Below are positions 20,185 to 57,103 of a stretch of 64,000 nucleotides of DNA, piece after piece. Every line of letters starts with the position of its first letter. Positions within the stretch are counted from its first letter, which is position 1. Position numbers and translations under genes: made by a program. The notes under the pieces were generated by a model. It was not told the DNA's origin, ran no database searches, and was given only the letters and a program-made list of their open reading frames with translations. This stretch comes from Gemmatimonadota bacterium (GTDB lineage Bacteria > Gemmatimonadota > Gemmatimonadetes > Gemmatimonadales > GWC2-71-9): assembly GCA_041484445.1 (NCBI GenBank), contig JBGPHP010000001.1:4150-68149 (forward strand). The letters are read 5' to 3'.

Positions 20185-20667
20185 ATGCCTCCAGCAAAGG
20201 CCGCACCACCGGCGCTACGCATCGCCCTGCCCGCCGATGCCGCGGAGCTCGCCCGGCTGCGCTATGAGTTTCGCTCCACCGAGCGGTCCGCGACGGAGCC
20301 GCGCGAGGCGTTCGTCGCACGGGCGACGGCGTGGATGCGCGAGCGGCTGGCCCCGGGGACGTCGTGGCGGTGCTTCGTCGCCGTGCGCGACGGGGCGATC
20401 ACGGGCCACGTGTGGATCACACTGGTGGACAAGGTGCCCAATCCCGGGGGCGACGAGCCGGAGCGACACGCATATCTCACGAACCTCTATGTGCGTCCGG
20501 CCGAGCGCGGCGGGACGGGCAGCGCGCTGCTCGAGGCGGCGCTGGCCTGGTGCCGCGAGGCACATGTGGACACGGTAATTCTGTGGCCCAGCGAGCGCAG
20601 CCGCACGCTGTATGCGCGCTATGGGTTCGATGCCTCCCATGCCGTCATGGTGCTGCCGCTTCGCTAA
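20185..20667 (+). CDS. GNAT family N-acetyltransferase
   Basis: ATG at 20185. Motif A LYVRPAERGGTGSALLEAAL. C-terminus YARYGF. Confidence 0.85.
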   Translation: MPPAKAAPPALRIALPADAAELARLRYEFRSTERSATEPREAFVARATAWMRERLAPGTSWRCFVAVRDGAITGHVWITLVDKVPNPGGDEPERHAYLTNLYVRPAERGGTGSALLEAALAWCREAHVDTVILWPSERSRTLYARYGFDASHAVMVLPLR

Positions 20668-22118
20668 GGGCGCGGGGCGATTCTGAGCGCGCCCTCCCGG
20701 CGCGCGACCGTAGCATGCGGCGCGCGGAGCGTGAACCGTCGCGCCTCGACCCGCAACGCCGCCACCTCGACCGCGCCGGTGTCCGGCACGGCGAGCGGCG
20801 CGCCGCCCGCCGTGATGACGAGCGAGTCGCTATCCGCGATCACCGTTTGGTACTCACCCGTGCGGCGATCCTCCGTCGCCGGCTGCTCGAACGACACGGA
20901 GACGCTGTCACCGCCGCACAAGACGACGAACCGGGCATGGAGCATCCGGCCGTCCCCCACCTGCAGCAGATTCTGCGGGTCGAATCCGCAGTAGAAGAAC
21001 CGCCCCCCCGGGACTCCCGTCGCCTCGACGACGAGTCGCGCTCCCGGCTGCTGCATCACGCTGTCCACCTGTGCCAGCCGTCGGGCGCGCAGGCCCGCCA
21101 CCGCACGCTCGGCTTCGGGACGCGTCGCCCGCTGCAGCTGGTGGAGGGAGTCGGGCCATGCGGTCCCGAGTAGCGCCGCGCCGTGATACCCCGCGACCAG
21201 CGCGAGCTCGTCTTGGATCGTCCGGTCCCCGACGACCAGGGCGCGCTTCCATGTGGGCCCGGCCAGACGATCCAACAGGAGGCTCATCGTGCTGCCGGTC
21301 GCATAGAAGCGCCGCCGCACCGAGTTCCGGGTCCGGGTCAGCAGACTGTCGAGGAGCGCCGTCTCATCGTCCACGATCCGGCGTGCGGCTGTGTCTCGGG
21401 GCGTCCCGCCGTTGCGGCCCAGCTCGCTGACCCCGCGCAACAGGGCGTATTGGGCCAACCCCTCGTTCAGCTCGCCCATCCGCTCGAAAGTCACGAAGCT
21501 GGAGTCGAGCCGTGATTGGCGCGCGTCGCGCACCGCCAGGAAACGGCGCGTGAGGGCCTTGGTTTCCGCTGCGGTCTGCGCGCGGAACGCCCGCCGCAGG
21601 AGACGGGCTTCGATCGCCCACAACGTTTCGTTCTCCACGTCGAACACGGGGTAGTCCGCGACCAGCATCGCGTTCTCCCAGGTGCCGAAGCGTCGACCCT
21701 CGCGCCGGGTCATGCGCTCGAAGGAGTGGAATTCCTCGTGCAACGCGAGGCCGAGCACGTCTGCCGCGGTCGCGGTCGAATCGACGCTCAGGAAGGCGAT
21801 GAAGCGATTGCTCGGGAACGACACCGTCTGGGTGTCGGTCCAGAACGCCCTCGCGCCGGGGAGCGGAGCGAACCCGGCCGGAGCAGTGTCGCGCCAAGCG
21901 ACGAACAGCTTGGCTCGTCCGGGAATCACGTACAGCGTGGGAATCGACTCCGGGTGAAAGCCGGGCCAGATGCGTGGCCCGATCACCGATCCCAGGGTGG
22001 CGATCCGGGCGTGCAGGCGGGCGATGGCGCGCGCCGTGTCGGCAGGTCCCTGCCCGGCGAGTGGAGCCGCGGCCAGGACGGACGCCAGCATCATCAAATA
22101 CGAAGACCTTCGTAACAT
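20664..22118 (-). CDS. Secreted HExxH protein (candidate uncharacterised zinc metallopeptidase)
   Basis: GGAG lies 8 nt before the ATG at 22118. Signal peptide MLRRSSYLMMLASVLAAAPLAGQ. LALHEEFHSFE, and 83 residues later LNEGLAQYA. No named family recognised. Confidence 0.7.
   Translation of the reverse strand: MLRRSSYLMMLASVLAAAPLAGQGPADTARAIARLHARIATLGSVIGPRIWPGFHPESIPTLYVIPGRAKLFVAWRDTAPAGFAPLPGARAFWTDTQTVSFPSNRFIAFLSVDSTATAADVLGLALHEEFHSFERMTRREGRRFGTWENAMLVADYPVFDVENETLWAIEARLLRRAFRAQTAAETKALTRRFLAVRDARQSRLDSSFVTFERMGELNEGLAQYALLRGVSELGRNGGTPRDTAARRIVDDETALLDSLLTRTRNSVRRRFYATGSTMSLLLDRLAGPTWKRALVVGDRTIQDELALVAGYHGAALLGTAWPDSLHQLQRATRPEAERAVAGLRARRLAQVDSVMQQPGARLVVEATGVPGGRFFYCGFDPQNLLQVGDGRMLHARFVVLCGGDSVSVSFEQPATEDRRTGEYQTVIADSDSLVITAGGAPLAVPDTGAVEVAALRVEARRFTLRAPHATVARREGALRIAPRP
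22099..22114 (-). promoter_or_regulatory. Perfect palindrome TACGAAG-N2-CTTCGTA on codons 2-6 of the HExxH gene (putative BlaI-family operator)
   Basis: The plus strand reads TACGAAGACCTTCGTA. The arms are identical to the site at 23771-23786. Confidence 0.6.
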
Positions 22119-22161
22119 TGGACACGCTCCGGGCAAATAGTCGAGTGCCACCTGTCTCAGC

Positions 22162-23367
22162 TCAGGGAGTCCGGGACGACCAGGAGAAGCCCTGTGGACG
22201 GAGCTTCAAGGAGAAGGTGCCGCGCGACCACGGCAGCACGACGCTGTCGCCGCGCTGCTCGATGCGCTCCACCGGCACCCGCACCCCGCCCACCACGGCG
22301 CGCACCACGCGGCCGTGCTCCACGGCGATCGTGAAGGCCCCGGCGGGGTCGGAGGCGTGCACCACGAAATAGGACGGTACGAGGGCGCCGGGGCGCAGGG
22401 CATCGAGTGTCCCCGGCAACAACGCCTCTCCGGCGACGGCGAGCAGCGCCGCGGTGATTCCGCCGCCGGTGGCGAGCGCGGCCAAGCCCCGCCCCGCCGG
22501 GACGCGGGGGCCAGGCCGGGTCAGCCGCTCGAGTCGGGCCGCGAGGGATCCTCCGGTCGCCGCGAGCGCCGGTGCCGTCGCGTCCGCGCGCAATACCTCG
22601 AGTCGCGCCAGGGCGCGGGCATACGTGCGCGGATCCCCCACCGCCCGGACGGCGATTTCGTCGCAGCTCGCTTCCCGCTCGTGCCGCACAGCGCCCGATA
22701 CCCACCACCCGGCGGGATGGAAGCACAGCAACGACTCCACCAGCACCTGGATCAGGTTGGCCAGGCCATCGTGGCGTCGCACGTGTCCCAGCTCGTGCGC
22801 CAGGATCGCCTCGAGCTCACGGGCCTCGAGGGGGGCCAGCGTGGTGGGGATGAGGATGCGTGGGCGCCGCGTGCCGATCAGCGTCGGCACGGTCACGGCG
22901 CTCGAGAGGGCGATCGCCACGCGACGGTCGACGCCGACGCGGTGCGCGGCGCGAGCGAGGGCGTCGATCCATAGCTGCGGCGCGGGCTGCGTGCCCCCTC
23001 GACCGAGTCGAGCGGTCAGCCACCAGCCGCCGATCCAGCGCACCAGCATGATGGCCGCCAGCACGACCCACACCGCGGCGAGCCAGCGAGCCGCGGGCGT
23101 GAGCGCGTCGTACACGCCGGCCAGCAGCGCCGGGGCGGCCGCCGCTCCGCCGACCGCGAGCGACGGCCGATGCCGGCCGGCCCAGGCGAGGTAGCCTGCG
23201 TCGAGTACGGGGAGCAGCAGGAGCAGTAGCAGCGTCGCGTACGCCGCGGCGTAGCGCACCCGCGCGCCCAGCCCCCCGACCCCGAGTCCGAGCGCCAGTC
23301 CGCCGGCCAGGAGTACCGCCTGCCAGCTGAAGTGGACGAGCGCCCATCCCCACAGGGCGAGGCTCAC
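22162..23367 (-). CDS. BlaR1-like M56 family membrane sensor-peptidase
   Basis: 401 aa, multi-TM. M56 zinc motif ILAHELGHVRRHD. 4-nt overlap (ATGA-type) with the upstream BlaI-like gene. Confidence 0.88.
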   Translation of the reverse strand: MSLALWGWALVHFSWQAVLLAGGLALGLGVGGLGARVRYAAAYATLLLLLLLPVLDAGYLAWAGRHRPSLAVGGAAAAPALLAGVYDALTPAARWLAAVWVVLAAIMLVRWIGGWWLTARLGRGGTQPAPQLWIDALARAAHRVGVDRRVAIALSSAVTVPTLIGTRRPRILIPTTLAPLEARELEAILAHELGHVRRHDGLANLIQVLVESLLCFHPAGWWVSGAVRHEREASCDEIAVRAVGDPRTYARALARLEVLRADATAPALAATGGSLAARLERLTRPGPRVPAGRGLAALATGGGITAALLAVAGEALLPGTLDALRPGALVPSYFVVHASDPAGAFTIAVEHGRVVRAVVGGVRVPVERIEQRGDSVVLPWSRGTFSLKLRPQGFSWSSRTP

Positions 23368-23756
23368 GTGCGCTCCCGGTCCAGACGAGCGAGCAGCGCG
23401 CGCACTGCCGCCAGCTCGGCGCCGCGCGCCGGCCGGCTCGACAGCGCCCGCAGCGCGAGTCGCGCGGCCGAACCGCCGAACGCGCGCAGGGCGAGGTCGT
23501 CCACCAAGCGCCGTTGTGTGCGCTCCGAGGGCTCGGCGGCGGCGTAGATGTGGGTGCGCGACGACTTCTCGCGCGACACGAGCCCCTTGGCGTGCATGAT
23601 CTGGAGCAGTTTCAGCACGGTCGTGTACGCCGTGTCCTGTCCCCGTCCCAGGGCGACGCGGACGTCACGAACGGTGCTCGGGCCCCGGGTCCACAGGACC
23701 CCGAGGATCTCGAGCTCCGCCCCGGTGGGAAGCGGCGGCCCGCGTCGCGCTGTCAT
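23364..23756 (-). CDS. BlaI/MecI/CopY family transcriptional repressor
   Basis: 130 aa. Winged-helix N-terminus ELEILGVLWTRGPSTVRDV...YTTVLKLLQIMHAKGLV. Paired with the M56 gene. Confidence 0.88.
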   Translation of the reverse strand: MTARRGPPLPTGAELEILGVLWTRGPSTVRDVRVALGRGQDTAYTTVLKLLQIMHAKGLVSREKSSRTHIYAAAEPSERTQRRLVDDLALRAFGGSAARLALRALSSRPARGAELAAVRALLARLDRERT

Positions 23757-23770
23757 CGGAGCCAGTTATA

Positions 23771-23786
23771 TACGAAGAGCTTCGTA
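23771..23786 (-). promoter_or_regulatory. Perfect palindrome TACGAAG-N2-CTTCGTA, 15-30 nt upstream of the BlaI-like ATG (putative autoregulatory operator)
   Basis: The plus strand reads TACGAAGAGCTTCGTA inside an AT-rich island. On the minus strand it fills the spacer between TTGCGT and TATAAC, and the ATG follows 8 nt after TATAAC. Confidence 0.65.
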
Positions 23787-23810
23787 GACGCAAGAGCCGC
23801 GGATACAGCC

Positions 23811-24782
23811 TTACGGTCGCAGCAACACCTTCCCCGCCGTTGTGCGGCTCTCCAATGCACGGTGCGCGTCGGCCGCCTGGGCCAGCGGCCATTCGCGATC
23901 GATGTGCAGCACGAGCGTTCCGTCCTGCACCCACCGCAACAGCTCCTCCACGCGGGTCTCGAGCTCCGCGCGGGTCGCCACGTAGTGGCCCAGCGTCGGC
24001 CGGGTGAGAAAGAGCGAGCCGCGCTGGTTCAGCACCTGCGGGTCGAGCGGCGCCACGGGCCCGCTCGACTGTCCGAACAGCACCATCATGCCGCGGCGGG
24101 CGAGACAGCGCAGTCCCGCATCGAAGGTGGTGCGCCCCACCGAATCGTAGACGACCTGCACCCCCGAGCCTCCCGTCAGGCGCCGGACTTCGGCTTCGAA
24201 ATCCTGCTCGGTGTAGAGGATCACGTCGTCGGCGCCCGCTTCGCGGGCGAGCGCCGCCTTTGCCGCCGTGGACACGGTCCCGATGACCCGCGCACCGCGT
24301 CGCTTGGCGATCTGGCACAGCACCAGCCCCACCCCGCCCGCGGCGGCGTGCACCAGGCAGGTGTCGCCGGGCTCGAGGGGGTAGGTCGTGCAGGCGAGGT
24401 AGTGCGCGGTCATTCCCTGGAGCATCAGGGCAGCGCCCTGCGCCGCGCTTACCCCATCAGGGAGCGGGACGACGCGATCGGCCGGGGCGACGGCGTACTC
24501 GGCATAGGCACCCAGCCCGCCGTGGTAGCAAGCGACTCGGTCACCGACGCGAAATCCTGTGACACCAGCGCCGAGCGCGGCGACGGTGCCCGCCGCTTCC
24601 TGACCCGGCACGAACGGCGTCGCGGTCTTGTAGAGTCCAGTGCGTTGATAGACGTCGATGTAGTTGACCCCGACGGCCTCCACGGCGATGCACAACTGCC
24701 CCGGTCCGGGCTCGGGGCTCGGGACGTCGTCGAGCAGCAGCACTTCCGGCCCGCCGCGCGCGTGGACGCGGATCGCCTTCAC
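23811..24782 (-). CDS. qor: NADPH:quinone oxidoreductase (zeta-crystallin/MDR family)
   Basis: 323 aa with [14 protein letters not shown] and AAAGGVG nucleotide-binding motifs. Confidence 0.88.
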
Positions 24783-55444: not shown

Positions 55445-57103
55445 GTGCCCGTGCGCGTCCTGACTTTCGTCGTCCTCGCCGCTTGTACCATGGCCGCCCG
55501 TGCCGCCACCGCCCAGGGACCGCGATTCGAGATCACGATCCCCGCGCAGCTGCGCGGCACACCGGTGACCGGACGCGTCTATGTGTTCGTCTCGTCCAAG
55601 CGTGACGAGGAGCCGCGCCTGGGAGACCATGGGGAGAGCGACTGCGTCCCCTTCTACGGCGTGGACGTGATCGGCCTCGCGGCCGGGACGCCGGTCGTGA
55701 TCGACGGGACGACGCTGGGCTATCCGGTGGCGAGTCTCAACGAGATCCCAGCCGGTGACTACTACGTGCAGGCGCTCGTCAGCCTCTACACCGAGTTTCA
55801 CCGCGCCGACGGCCACACGCTCTGGATGCACGACGACCAATGGGAGGGACAGCAGTTCAACATCTCTCCCGGAAACCTGGTGAGCGAGGTGCAGCACGTG
55901 CACCTCGATCCCAAGAGCGGCTACACCATCCGGCTCTCGCTCGCCCGGGCGCTGCCGCCGGTGCAGGTCCCGCCCGACACCAAGTGGGTGCGGCGGATCA
56001 AGTTTCAGAGCAAGCTCCTCTCCGCCTGGTGGGGACGCTCGATCTACCTCGGCGCCACCGTCTTGCTGCCGCGGGACTACGACCGCGACACGACGCGCCG
56101 CTACCCGGTGGTCTACGAGCAGGGGCACTTCTCGCTGCGAGCCCCGTTCGGATTCTCGACCGACAGTGTGGCGGAAACACCCGAGCGCAAGGCCGAGCGC
56201 GAGCTGCGCACCATGCGCGAGCCCGGGTTCGAGTTCTATCGCGCCTGGCGCTCCGACAGCTTCCCGCAGGTGGTCGCCGTGACATTCCAGCATCCGACGC
56301 CGTACTTCGACGACTCGTACGCGGTGAACTCCGTGAACAACGGGCCGTACGGCGACGCCATCATGCAGGAGCTGATCCCGTATCTGGAGGATCACTTCCG
56401 GATCTCCCGCCAGCCGGCCGCCCGTTTCCTCACGGGAGGCTCGACCGGAGGATGGGAGGCGCTGGCGCTCCAGGTGTACCACCCCGACTTCTTCGGCGGC
56501 ACGTGGGTGCTCTATCCCGACCCGGTGGATTTCCGCAGTTACGAGCTGGTCAACATGTACAGCGATACGAACGCGTTCGTCTACCCGGTGTCGGACTGGA
56601 TGTGGTCCGAGGTACCGGCGGAGGTCGAGGTGACGGGCCAGCCGCGCATCACCGTGCGGCAGGAGAGTCAGTTCGAGGCGGTGTTGGGCAGCCACGCCCG
56701 CTCCGGCGAGCAGTTCGCGATCTGGGAAGCGACCTATGGCCCGGTCGGGCCGGACGGCTACACCGCGGAGCTGTGGGATCTCCGGACCGGGCACATCCGC
56801 CACGACGTGGCCGAGTACTTCCGCACGCACGACTACGACTTGCGGGACTACCTCGAGCGCAACTGGGCGGCGCTGGGACCGAAACTGCGCGGCAAGATCC
56901 ACGTCTTCGTCGGCGACTACGATACGTTCTACCTCAACCTGGCGGTGTACCGGCTGGAGGACTTCCTCAAGCGCACCACCCCGCCGGCCGACGCGGAATT
57001 CGGCTACGGCCGGCCGATGAAGCCGCACGGCTGGCAGCCCTGGACCAACGCCGATCTCATGCGGATCATGGCCGCGCAGGCTGCCCGTCCCGGGAGTCCC
57101 TGA
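55445..57103 (+). CDS. Secreted esterase-like alpha/beta hydrolase (enterochelin-esterase-like fold)
   Basis: Signal peptide ...VLAACTMAARAATAQG. N-terminal beta-sandwich-like region, then LLPRDYD...RYPVVY and nucleophile-elbow-like GGSTGGWEAL. The start is GTG at 55445 or 55451 (AGGAG lies just upstream). Confidence 0.7.
   Translation: MPVRVLTFVVLAACTMAARAATAQGPRFEITIPAQLRGTPVTGRVYVFVSSKRDEEPRLGDHGESDCVPFYGVDVIGLAAGTPVVIDGTTLGYPVASLNEIPAGDYYVQALVSLYTEFHRADGHTLWMHDDQWEGQQFNISPGNLVSEVQHVHLDPKSGYTIRLSLARALPPVQVPPDTKWVRRIKFQSKLLSAWWGRSIYLGATVLLPRDYDRDTTRRYPVVYEQGHFSLRAPFGFSTDSVAETPERKAERELRTMREPGFEFYRAWRSDSFPQVVAVTFQHPTPYFDDSYAVNSVNNGPYGDAIMQELIPYLEDHFRISRQPAARFLTGGSTGGWEALALQVYHPDFFGGTWVLYPDPVDFRSYELVNMYSDTNAFVYPVSDWMWSEVPAEVEVTGQPRITVRQESQFEAVLGSHARSGEQFAIWEATYGPVGPDGYTAELWDLRTGHIRHDVAEYFRTHDYDLRDYLERNWAALGPKLRGKIHVFVGDYDTFYLNLAVYRLEDFLKRTTPPADAEFGYGRPMKPHGWQPWTNADLMRIMAAQAARPGSP

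Follow-up and report, generated by a model that had tools for sequence, protein, structure and literature searches.

Can one repressor control its own operon at two places, the promoter and the start of the third gene? The question is raised by a locus of a Gemmatimonadota bacterium (contig JBGPHP010000001.1), of which we analyzed one stretch of 64,000 nt, here called the window. On the minus strand of the window, a blaI-like repressor gene is followed by a gene for a membrane metalloprotease of family M56 and then by a third gene, g3, which encodes a secreted HExxH protein. A 16-bp palindrome lies in the blaI promoter (O1), and another with identical arms lies in the first codons of g3 (O2). 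We found that this pair of dyads is real and not due to chance. As far as sequence can establish, O2 would be a binding site for the operon's own BlaI, and its position at the M56-g3 junction appears to be under selection.

Two dyads with identical arms

The elements of the locus are the following.

23788..23793, minus strand: −35 hexamer TTGCGT of the blaI promoter; its TTG is at a fixed offset in 20/20 loci, and TTGC.T is invariant in 8 close relatives
23771..23786, no strand assigned: O1, the promoter-proximal dyad TACGAAG-NN-CTTCGTA, kept 5′ of blaI in all class-A loci (classes are described below)
23765..23770, minus strand: −10 hexamer TATAAC, ending 8 nt 5′ of the blaI ATG; TATA(A/T)AC is invariant in close relatives
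23364..23756, minus strand: gene for the 130-aa blaI-like repressor (Penicillinase_R, Pfam PF03965; E = 2.1e-21)
22162..23367, minus strand: gene for the M56 (BlaR1-like) membrane metalloprotease, 401 aa (Pfam PF05569, E = 2.8e-30; HELGH motif)
22127..22130, minus strand: GGAG ribosome-binding site of g3, 8 nt 5′ of the ATG; in 8 close relatives GG.G is invariant and GGAG occurs in 7/8
22099..22114, no strand assigned: O2, the distal dyad TACGAAG-NN-CTTCGTA, in g3 codons 2-7 and 47 nt past the M56 stop
20664..22118, minus strand: g3, 484-aa secreted HExxH protein of an uncharacterized family, with a signal peptide and the motifs HEEFH and ELNEGLAQY

O1, which reads TACGAAGAGCTTCGTA on the plus strand, lies 15 to 30 nt 5′ of the blaI ATG (23756). 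Its context on the minus (coding) strand is cTTGCGT-c-TACGAAGCTCTTCGTA-TATAAC-tggctccg-ATG, and the dyad fills the 17-nt spacer of the promoter. O2 reads TACGAAGACCTTCGTA and covers nt +5 to +20 of the open reading frame (ORF) that begins at 22118. On the minus strand, the head of this 484-aa ORF is GGAG-cgtgtcca-ATG-T-TACGAAGGTCTTCGTA-TTTG. The arms of the two dyads are identical, and the dyads are separated by 1672 bp. A first-pass annotation, made from the letters of the DNA, had given the coordinates and sequences of both palindromes, the placement of one in a promoter spacer, and that of the other at +5 to +20, and all of these were exact. It had also taken the ATG at 22118 as the start of g3, which matches a database protein (P0001; 484 aa, 100% identity) and has the GGAG 8 nt upstream. 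We considered a later start, at an ATG ATG after the dyad, which would make O2 noncoding. This was rejected, as the later start is missing in L058, L076, L036, L040, and L056 and the upstream ATG has the GGAG.

We then asked how often such dyads are to be expected in this DNA, which has a GC content of 69.3%. A search of the window for TACGAAGNNCTTCGTA, allowing up to 2 mismatches, found O1 and O2 as the sole matches, with 0.04 expected. Two or more matches occurred in 0 of 100 dinucleotide-preserving shuffles of the window. Both figures bear out the claim of the first-pass annotation that the dyads are unlikely to have arisen by chance. Codons 2 to 7 of g3 are TTA CGA AGG TCT TCG TAT and encode the peptide L R R S S Y. 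Within their codon families, they make up 0.57% (TTA), 7.3% (CGA), 2.5% (AGG), 2.0% (TCT), 36% (TCG), and 18% (TAT) of the codons used in the window, and given the peptide their joint probability is ~1e-8. The use of such rare codons at O2 suggests that the constraint is on the DNA sequence and not on the peptide.

A near-perfect third box, TACGAACGCGTTCGTC (1 mismatch), lies at 56566-56581, in the middle of an ORF for a 552-aa secreted protein (55445..57103, plus strand). A composition-based estimate gives ~0.013 such matches per window. The box may belong to a further regulon member or may be there by chance.

Linkage and co-variation of the two dyads

If O2 is a site for the BlaI of its own operon, its presence should depend on the regulator genes. 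A g3 profile search of a genome collection gave 80 loci of Gemmatimonadota type, with a total of 588 kb. Profile searches of the ORFs of these loci placed blaI and then M56 directly 5′ of g3 in 20 of the 80. As a comparison set, we took the 43 g3 loci with neither blaI nor M56 upstream for which 1.7 kb or more of sequence on that side was available. We found the dyad at the start of g3 in 19 of the 20 blaI-M56-g3 loci, compared to 0 of the 43 loci without these genes. The same 19 loci have a dyad at O1 as well. In six further metagenome contigs, all syntenic and with g3 61 to 84% identical, both boxes were present in 6/6. The distance between O1 and O2 in the relatives ranges from 1468 to 1825 bp.

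These results bear on several claims of the first-pass annotation. It had proposed a unit of repressor, sensor-protease, and secreted protein, and 20 genome loci and 6 metagenome loci share this gene order. It had further proposed two BlaI-type operators and, where g3 begins, a second point of control. This is supported by the distribution just given (19/20 and 6/6 versus 0/43) and by the co-variation described next. Conservation of the dyad at the g3 start in relatives, which the annotation had named as a check, held in those 19 of 20 blaI-M56-g3 genome loci.

The boxes fall into classes. In class A, TACGAA-N4-TTCGTA is found both at O1 (~30 nt before blaI) and at O2, and the repressors are 54 to 95% identical to that of the window. 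In class B, O1 is AACGACA-NN-TGTAGTT and O2 is AACTACA-NN-TGT(A/C)GTT, and the repressors belong to a different clade, ~27 to 32% identical to that of the window. A Krumholzibacteriota locus (L074) has TCCGAA-N4-TTCGGA at both O1 and O2. The region of the BlaI recognition helix reads YTTVLKLLQIM in class A, A(L/V/I)TTVSTLL in class B, and YNTVGKLLQIM in L074. Across the loci compared, the O1 and O2 sequences change in step with each other and with the recognition helix. The blaI-M56-g3 layout itself is kept across Gemmatimonadota, Longimicrobia, and one Krumholzibacteriota genome, through at least 3 changes of operator specificity. The fit of O2 to the consensus equals or exceeds that of O1, and 39 of the 40 class-A and class-B pattern matches in the 588 kb lie either at most 110 nt 5′ of blaI or at the start of g3.

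The reading of O2 as codons differs between the classes. In class A it is translated as L-R-x-x-S-Y, and in class B as T-T-x-V-V, in another register relative to the center of the dyad. In L074, O2 is noncoding and lies just 5′ of the g3 start codon, where its right arm supplies the GGAG. The different registers and peptides, together with the noncoding box of L074, again point to a constraint at the level of the DNA.

In one further locus, L063, the start of g3 (1040-1075) contains a degenerate box that resembles class B, AACTACCGTCGTAGTC, and no M56 gene lies upstream. This box may be a relic.

The first-pass annotation had also likened the dyads to the TACA/TGTA type known for BlaI, MecI, and CopY repressors, and this was true in part. 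The window box, TAC-GAAG-NN-CTTC-GTA, has the same 7-2-7 geometry as the canonical BlaI/MecI box. However, it does not match the core TACANNTGTA (PMC1935004) or RNYKACANNTGTMRNY (PMC7253601): it has GAAG in place of KACA, and its TAC/GTA lies 3 bp farther from the center than in either core. In contrast, the class-B boxes (AAC-TACA-NN-TGTA-GTT) contain the canonical core and include a mecA-like ACTACA-NN-TGTAGT.

To see the class-A box outside g3 operons, we used a profile of the class-A repressors, which gave 80 metagenome loci (L081-L160) with BlaI proteins 52 to 64% identical. We did not find g3 in any of these 80 loci, and their M56 proteins are longer (480 to 750 aa). The same class-A box is the usual element 5′ of these blaI genes. 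Two or more boxes of the type TACGAA-N4-TTCG(T/A) lie 5′ of blaI in 45 of 75 loci, and 39 of 46 spacings are 21 or 22 bp. There was no box in the 151 kb 3′ of blaI in these loci, even before co-directional ORFs. This pattern, with tandem proximal boxes and no distal box where BlaI is not linked to g3, indicates that the distal site goes with g3. The TACGAA-type box is probably the general operator of this BlaI clade, usually present as a tandem proximal pair, and the arrangement of one proximal box and one distal box at a third gene appears to be specific to g3 operons. We know of no earlier description of the TACGAA-N4-TTCG(T/A) operator class.

Four g3 loci have a PadR-like regulator and a small membrane protein and lack BlaI and M56. 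Each of the four contains ATACA-N-T(G/A)TAG twice, and this pattern occurs nowhere else in the 588 kb. One box precedes the padR ATG by 14 nt, and the second precedes the g3 ATG by ~20 to 30 nt, at the following positions.

L008: PadR-type boxes at 228-238 and 1075-1085
L010: PadR-type boxes at 481 and 1327
L011: PadR-type boxes at 1020 and 1865
L019: PadR-type boxes at 718 and 1565

The padR and g3 upstream regions have no exact 10-mer in common; the box that they share differs at its center and was caught by the pattern. These loci may be an independent parallel, in which the same two-site logic is served by a regulator of another family.

A candidate roadblock at the start of g3

The surroundings of the two dyads are different. 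At O1, TTG keeps the same distance to the dyad in 20/20 loci, as part of a sigma-70-type promoter, and a TAnnnT hexamer touches or overlaps the right arm of the dyad. In most of the operon-linked loci of classes A and B, the −10 hexamer ends 6 to 8 nt 5′ of the blaI ATG and there is no Shine-Dalgarno sequence (23754-23770 in the window). This spacing suggests that the blaI mRNA is probably leaderless. A nucleotide alignment of 8 close relatives has an invariant island at O1, TTGC.T.TACGAA..TCTTCGTATAT.ACT. O1 thus has the arrangement expected for autoregulation, that is, a palindrome overlapping what would be the repressor gene's own promoter.

At O2, by comparison, we found no conserved −35 or −10 hexamer at a fixed offset in 21 loci. 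The invariant island in the 8 close relatives is ATG.TACGAA....TTCGTA.TT, and the Shine-Dalgarno sequence, the ATG, and the dyad are invariant as a group; the spacer from the M56 stop to the g3 ribosome-binding site is the most variable stretch. In related loci, O2 follows the M56 stop by 39 to 70 nt and the g3 start codon by 4 to 32 nt. The distance from the M56 stop to the g3 start codon falls to a minimum of ~10 nt in L045, which leaves no space for a separate promoter or terminator. A consensus promoter scan of 20400-24000 found none. The short and variable spacer and the lack of conserved promoter elements at O2 suggest that g3 is most simply transcribed from the blaI promoter. A terminator-like hairpin within the M56 gene (22235-22218) was rejected as a candidate; shuffled sequence has 0.8 sites of this kind, and close relatives have not preserved the stem.

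We propose the following model. Both 16-bp dyads would be bound, as operators, by the dimeric BlaI-like repressor whose gene lies between them. At O1, inside the sole recognizable promoter, the repressor would autoregulate a leaderless blaI-M56-g3 transcript. At O2, it would stop those RNA polymerases that escape the autoregulated promoter. According to this model, basal levels of repressor and sensor would be maintained while g3 stays off. Once signaled, the M56 protease would cleave BlaI, both dyads would be vacated, and the induction of g3 would be the product of promoter derepression and relief of the roadblock. O2 may additionally loop to O1. Binding of the repressor, co-transcription of the three genes, the roadblock, and cleavage of BlaI by the M56 protein are all steps that we infer.

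It is very probable, given the comparisons above, that the downstream gene g3 has a checkpoint of its own inside the operon. We assign a probability of about 0.55 to a g3-specific blockage at O2, possibly stabilized by a loop. The full scheme is put forward more tentatively, at a little under even odds: a two-tier operon under one repressor, with O1 setting the basal level and O2, in the codons of the signal peptide, acting as a roadblock and perhaps as a loop anchor. A roadblock would explain why O2 is tied to g3 and placed past the M56 stop, and why the n-region of a signal peptide accommodates it despite the rare codons. The second PadR-type box, directly before g3, fits a roadblock as well. 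According to rules published for LacI, promoter control can be combined with a roadblock farther downstream; at low RNA polymerase flux, the roadblock multiplies that control and gives a constant fold reduction (PMC4132739).

Several points weigh against this proposal. One locus (L054, 3880-3960) has blaI-M56-g3 and O1 and no recognizable O2. A LacI roadblock on an ideal operator reaches at most ~25-fold (PMC4132739), which brings into question what a small winged-helix dimer could do on one 16-bp site. For some BlaI proteins, two pairs of inverted repeats seem to be necessary (PMC8457756), and the relatives of the window repressor use two dyads. The 3′ end of M56 may contain a weak g3 promoter. 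In several respects, an auxiliary looping operator would account for the evidence just as well.

The looping alternative holds that a BlaI dimer of dimers bridges O1 and O2 over 1.7 kb and encloses blaI and M56. O2 would then mainly serve to keep O1 more fully occupied and the entire operon more tightly repressed, and an effect on g3 alone would be secondary. Consistently with this, O2 is a second operator-like site that belongs to the sequence class of O1, lies inside a downstream gene, and is near enough for a loop, and its match to the consensus is no worse than that of O1. The 52 to 64% identical BlaI relatives mostly have two boxes 21 to 22 bp apart, which is two helical turns and an indirect hint that the repressor may bridge two operators, and the g3-linked operons keep the total of two boxes with one moved far away. 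The BlaI regulators of Clostridium thermocellum likewise seem to depend on two pairs of inverted repeats, and hence on four protomers (PMC8457756). However, a looping partner could sit anywhere within 1 to 2 kb, including 5′ of the promoter, as it does in the relatives. Instead, all three operator classes keep O2 where M56 and g3 meet, despite the rare codons and a constrained signal peptide, and the PadR-type loci too put their second box right before g3. We consider it unlikely, although worth keeping in view, that looping is the main role of O2. Roadblock and looping are compatible and do not exclude each other.

If g3 had its own promoter, in the 3′ end of M56 or in the short spacer, O2 could be its ordinary operator just past the transcription start. 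Internal promoters are common, the second box of the PadR-type loci overlaps a good −10-like TACAAT 5′ of g3, and TTGAC(G/A) is found 16 nt before O2 in L013 and L056. We nevertheless judge such a promoter improbable, in view of the missing −35 and −10 conservation at O2 in 21 loci versus 20/20 at O1, the variability of the upstream spacer in the 8 close relatives, the empty consensus scan, and the ~10-nt spacer of L045. A hairpin in the mRNA just after the start codon might damp translation initiation of g3 without any repressor. A 6-bp hairpin with −4.4 kcal/mol can arise in the 24-nt segment (z = −2.3 versus shuffles), but it is weak, and the minimum-free-energy fold computed for the 91-nt context does not contain it (z = 0.09). 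Moreover, the arms are kept in sequence and are equal to those of O1, with no compensatory changes, and there is no dyad wherever blaI and M56 are absent, which makes the hairpin very improbable. The least credible reading is chance, or a conserved signal-peptide motif, LRxxSY, that is palindromic by accident. L-R-x-x-S-Y is indeed conserved in class-A proteins, but the expected number of matches (0.04) and the codon choice (~1e-8) argue strongly against an accident, as do the class-B peptide, which differs and encodes the operator of its own blaI, and the noncoding box of L074. Even together, the RNA and chance readings carry very little weight.

The encoded proteins and related systems

The proteins encoded by the operon have partly familiar features. 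Residues 11-123 of the blaI-like protein align with positions 2-114 of the 115 positions of PF03965, which covers the winged helix and the dimerization domain. The M56 gene start overlaps the blaI stop by 4 nt, and the coupling of the two genes is seen in this adjacency and overlap. The M56 protein matches the NCBIfam profile blaR1_generic only at positions 105-256 of 585, the protease core, with 55.7 bits (cutoff, 400). Searches of Pfam and NCBIfam found no penicillin-binding or transpeptidase sensor domain in the 401-aa protein. Judged by its domains, it is probably BlaR1-like in its working and is not a beta-lactam BlaR1, with a C-terminal domain of ~90 aa of another type.

The last ~75 residues of the M56 protein (22162-22390, residues ~327-401) resemble the C terminus of the small membrane protein of the padR-g3 loci (L028:3561-3995; L008, L010, L011, and L019), with tblastn values of 2e-06 to 8e-07 and 38 to 39% identity. 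This part of the M56 protein is a putative sensor domain, which would accompany g3 under either type of regulator. The last 9 codons of M56 (22162-22190), with the 27 nt TTCTCCTGGTCGTCCCGGACTCCCTGA, are near-invariant in 8 close relatives, including synonymous sites and a rare ACT codon. Third positions of M56 5′ of these 27 nt are freely variable in the same relatives.

The g3 protein has 426 homologues, all unnamed and mostly from Gemmatimonadota. In their alignment, H127-E128-x-x-H131, E219 (in ELNEGLAQY), and C377/C401 are invariant, and the signal peptide is conserved. The invariant residues suggest a secreted zinc enzyme with a disulfide. The NEGxAxY of g3 resembles gluzincin motifs. We found no Pfam or NCBIfam match for the family even at E = 10 (34 members) and no sequence relative in the PDB. 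An AlphaFold2 model of g3 (pLDDT, 90.4) has the signal peptide, a long helix, a few strands at ~60-111, a nearly all-helical part at ~118-355, and a beta-domain at ~360-483. A Foldseek comparison of this model with the PDB found no match at E <= 0.001. At its 3′ end, the g3 stop overlaps the end of a convergent ORF by 4 nt (20664-20667), which leaves no space for a terminator after g3; the convergent ORF is annotated as a GNAT acetyltransferase in syntenic relatives.

The closest systems in gene content are the bla and mec divergons of Staphylococcus aureus and Bacillus licheniformis. These likewise couple a Penicillinase_R repressor gene to an M56 protease gene, are autoregulated through a dyad of the 16-bp class that overlaps the promoter, and have more than one operator. 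The ACTACA-NN-TGTAGT of the class-B sister loci reads like the mecA operator CTACATTTGTAG (PMC1935004). In contrast to the divergons, the locus described here has no penicillin-binding sensor, and its target gene follows downstream in the same direction, where theirs is divergent. Its second operator also lies 1.7 kb away in the coding start of the target and not in a shared intergenic region. For Mycobacterium tuberculosis, the BlaI regulon (blaC and the atp genes) consists of separate promoters, and we know of no operator within an operon at the first codons of a downstream gene. Its operator is probably a TACGAC-type dyad near TACGAA-N4-TTCGTA. The BlaR of the M. tuberculosis pair (Rv1846c-Rv1845c) is like the M56 protein of the window in that it also has no beta-lactam sensor domain (PMC9834060).

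In function, the nearest analogues of O2 would be lac O2 in lacZ and natural roadblock operators. The lac O1/O2 and gal OE/OI pairs are alike in having a second operator inside the first regulated structural gene, 3′ of the promoter operator. The lac O2 lies 401 bp away inside lacZ and acts through loops made by the LacI tetramer. Such lac loops are covered elsewhere (PMC3592455). Here the distance is 1.6 to 1.8 kb, and the regulator genes lie inside the interval. Natural roadblocks include PurR in purB and sites for CcpA or CodY inside operons. To our knowledge, there is no roadblock case for the BlaI/MecI/CopY family. Like natural roadblocks and those of LacI (PMC4132739), O2 would be an operator within a transcription unit, with no conserved promoter elements around it, and it is predicted to give an extra fold reduction. 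It differs from the natural cases in that one repressor would act at both the promoter and the proposed block.

The operons of BlaI_0696 and of BlaI_1845 in C. thermocellum (PMC8457756) resemble the g3 operons in encoding hypothetical effectors and in having very small regulons and paired sites. There, both pairs of inverted repeats lie 5′ of the operon, whereas here one site is upstream and the other is before or inside the third gene. In the literature searched, with most subscription journals outside it, we saw no account of a BlaI, MecI, or CopY operator that lies within an operon and inside a gene. We concluded that the components are known and that the operator class and the placement of the operator are new.

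BlaI/BlaR1 proteolytic switches are usually studied at the level of the promoter and for antibiotic resistance. In a poorly studied soil phylum, a relative without the sensor domain appears to use a distal operator in the coding start of its target. If the proposal is true, this would be the first natural intra-operon roadblock described in the BlaI/MecI/CopY family and a natural system for how one repressor sets different expression levels within one operon. The TACGAA-N4-TTCGTA box would add a previously unlisted operator class that is widespread 5′ of BlaI genes in soil metagenomes, and the locus may serve as a worked example of how co-variation of two sites with a recognition helix can be used in place of binding data. 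For the organisms themselves, the results would tie an orphan family of secreted HExxH proteins to a dedicated signaling module.

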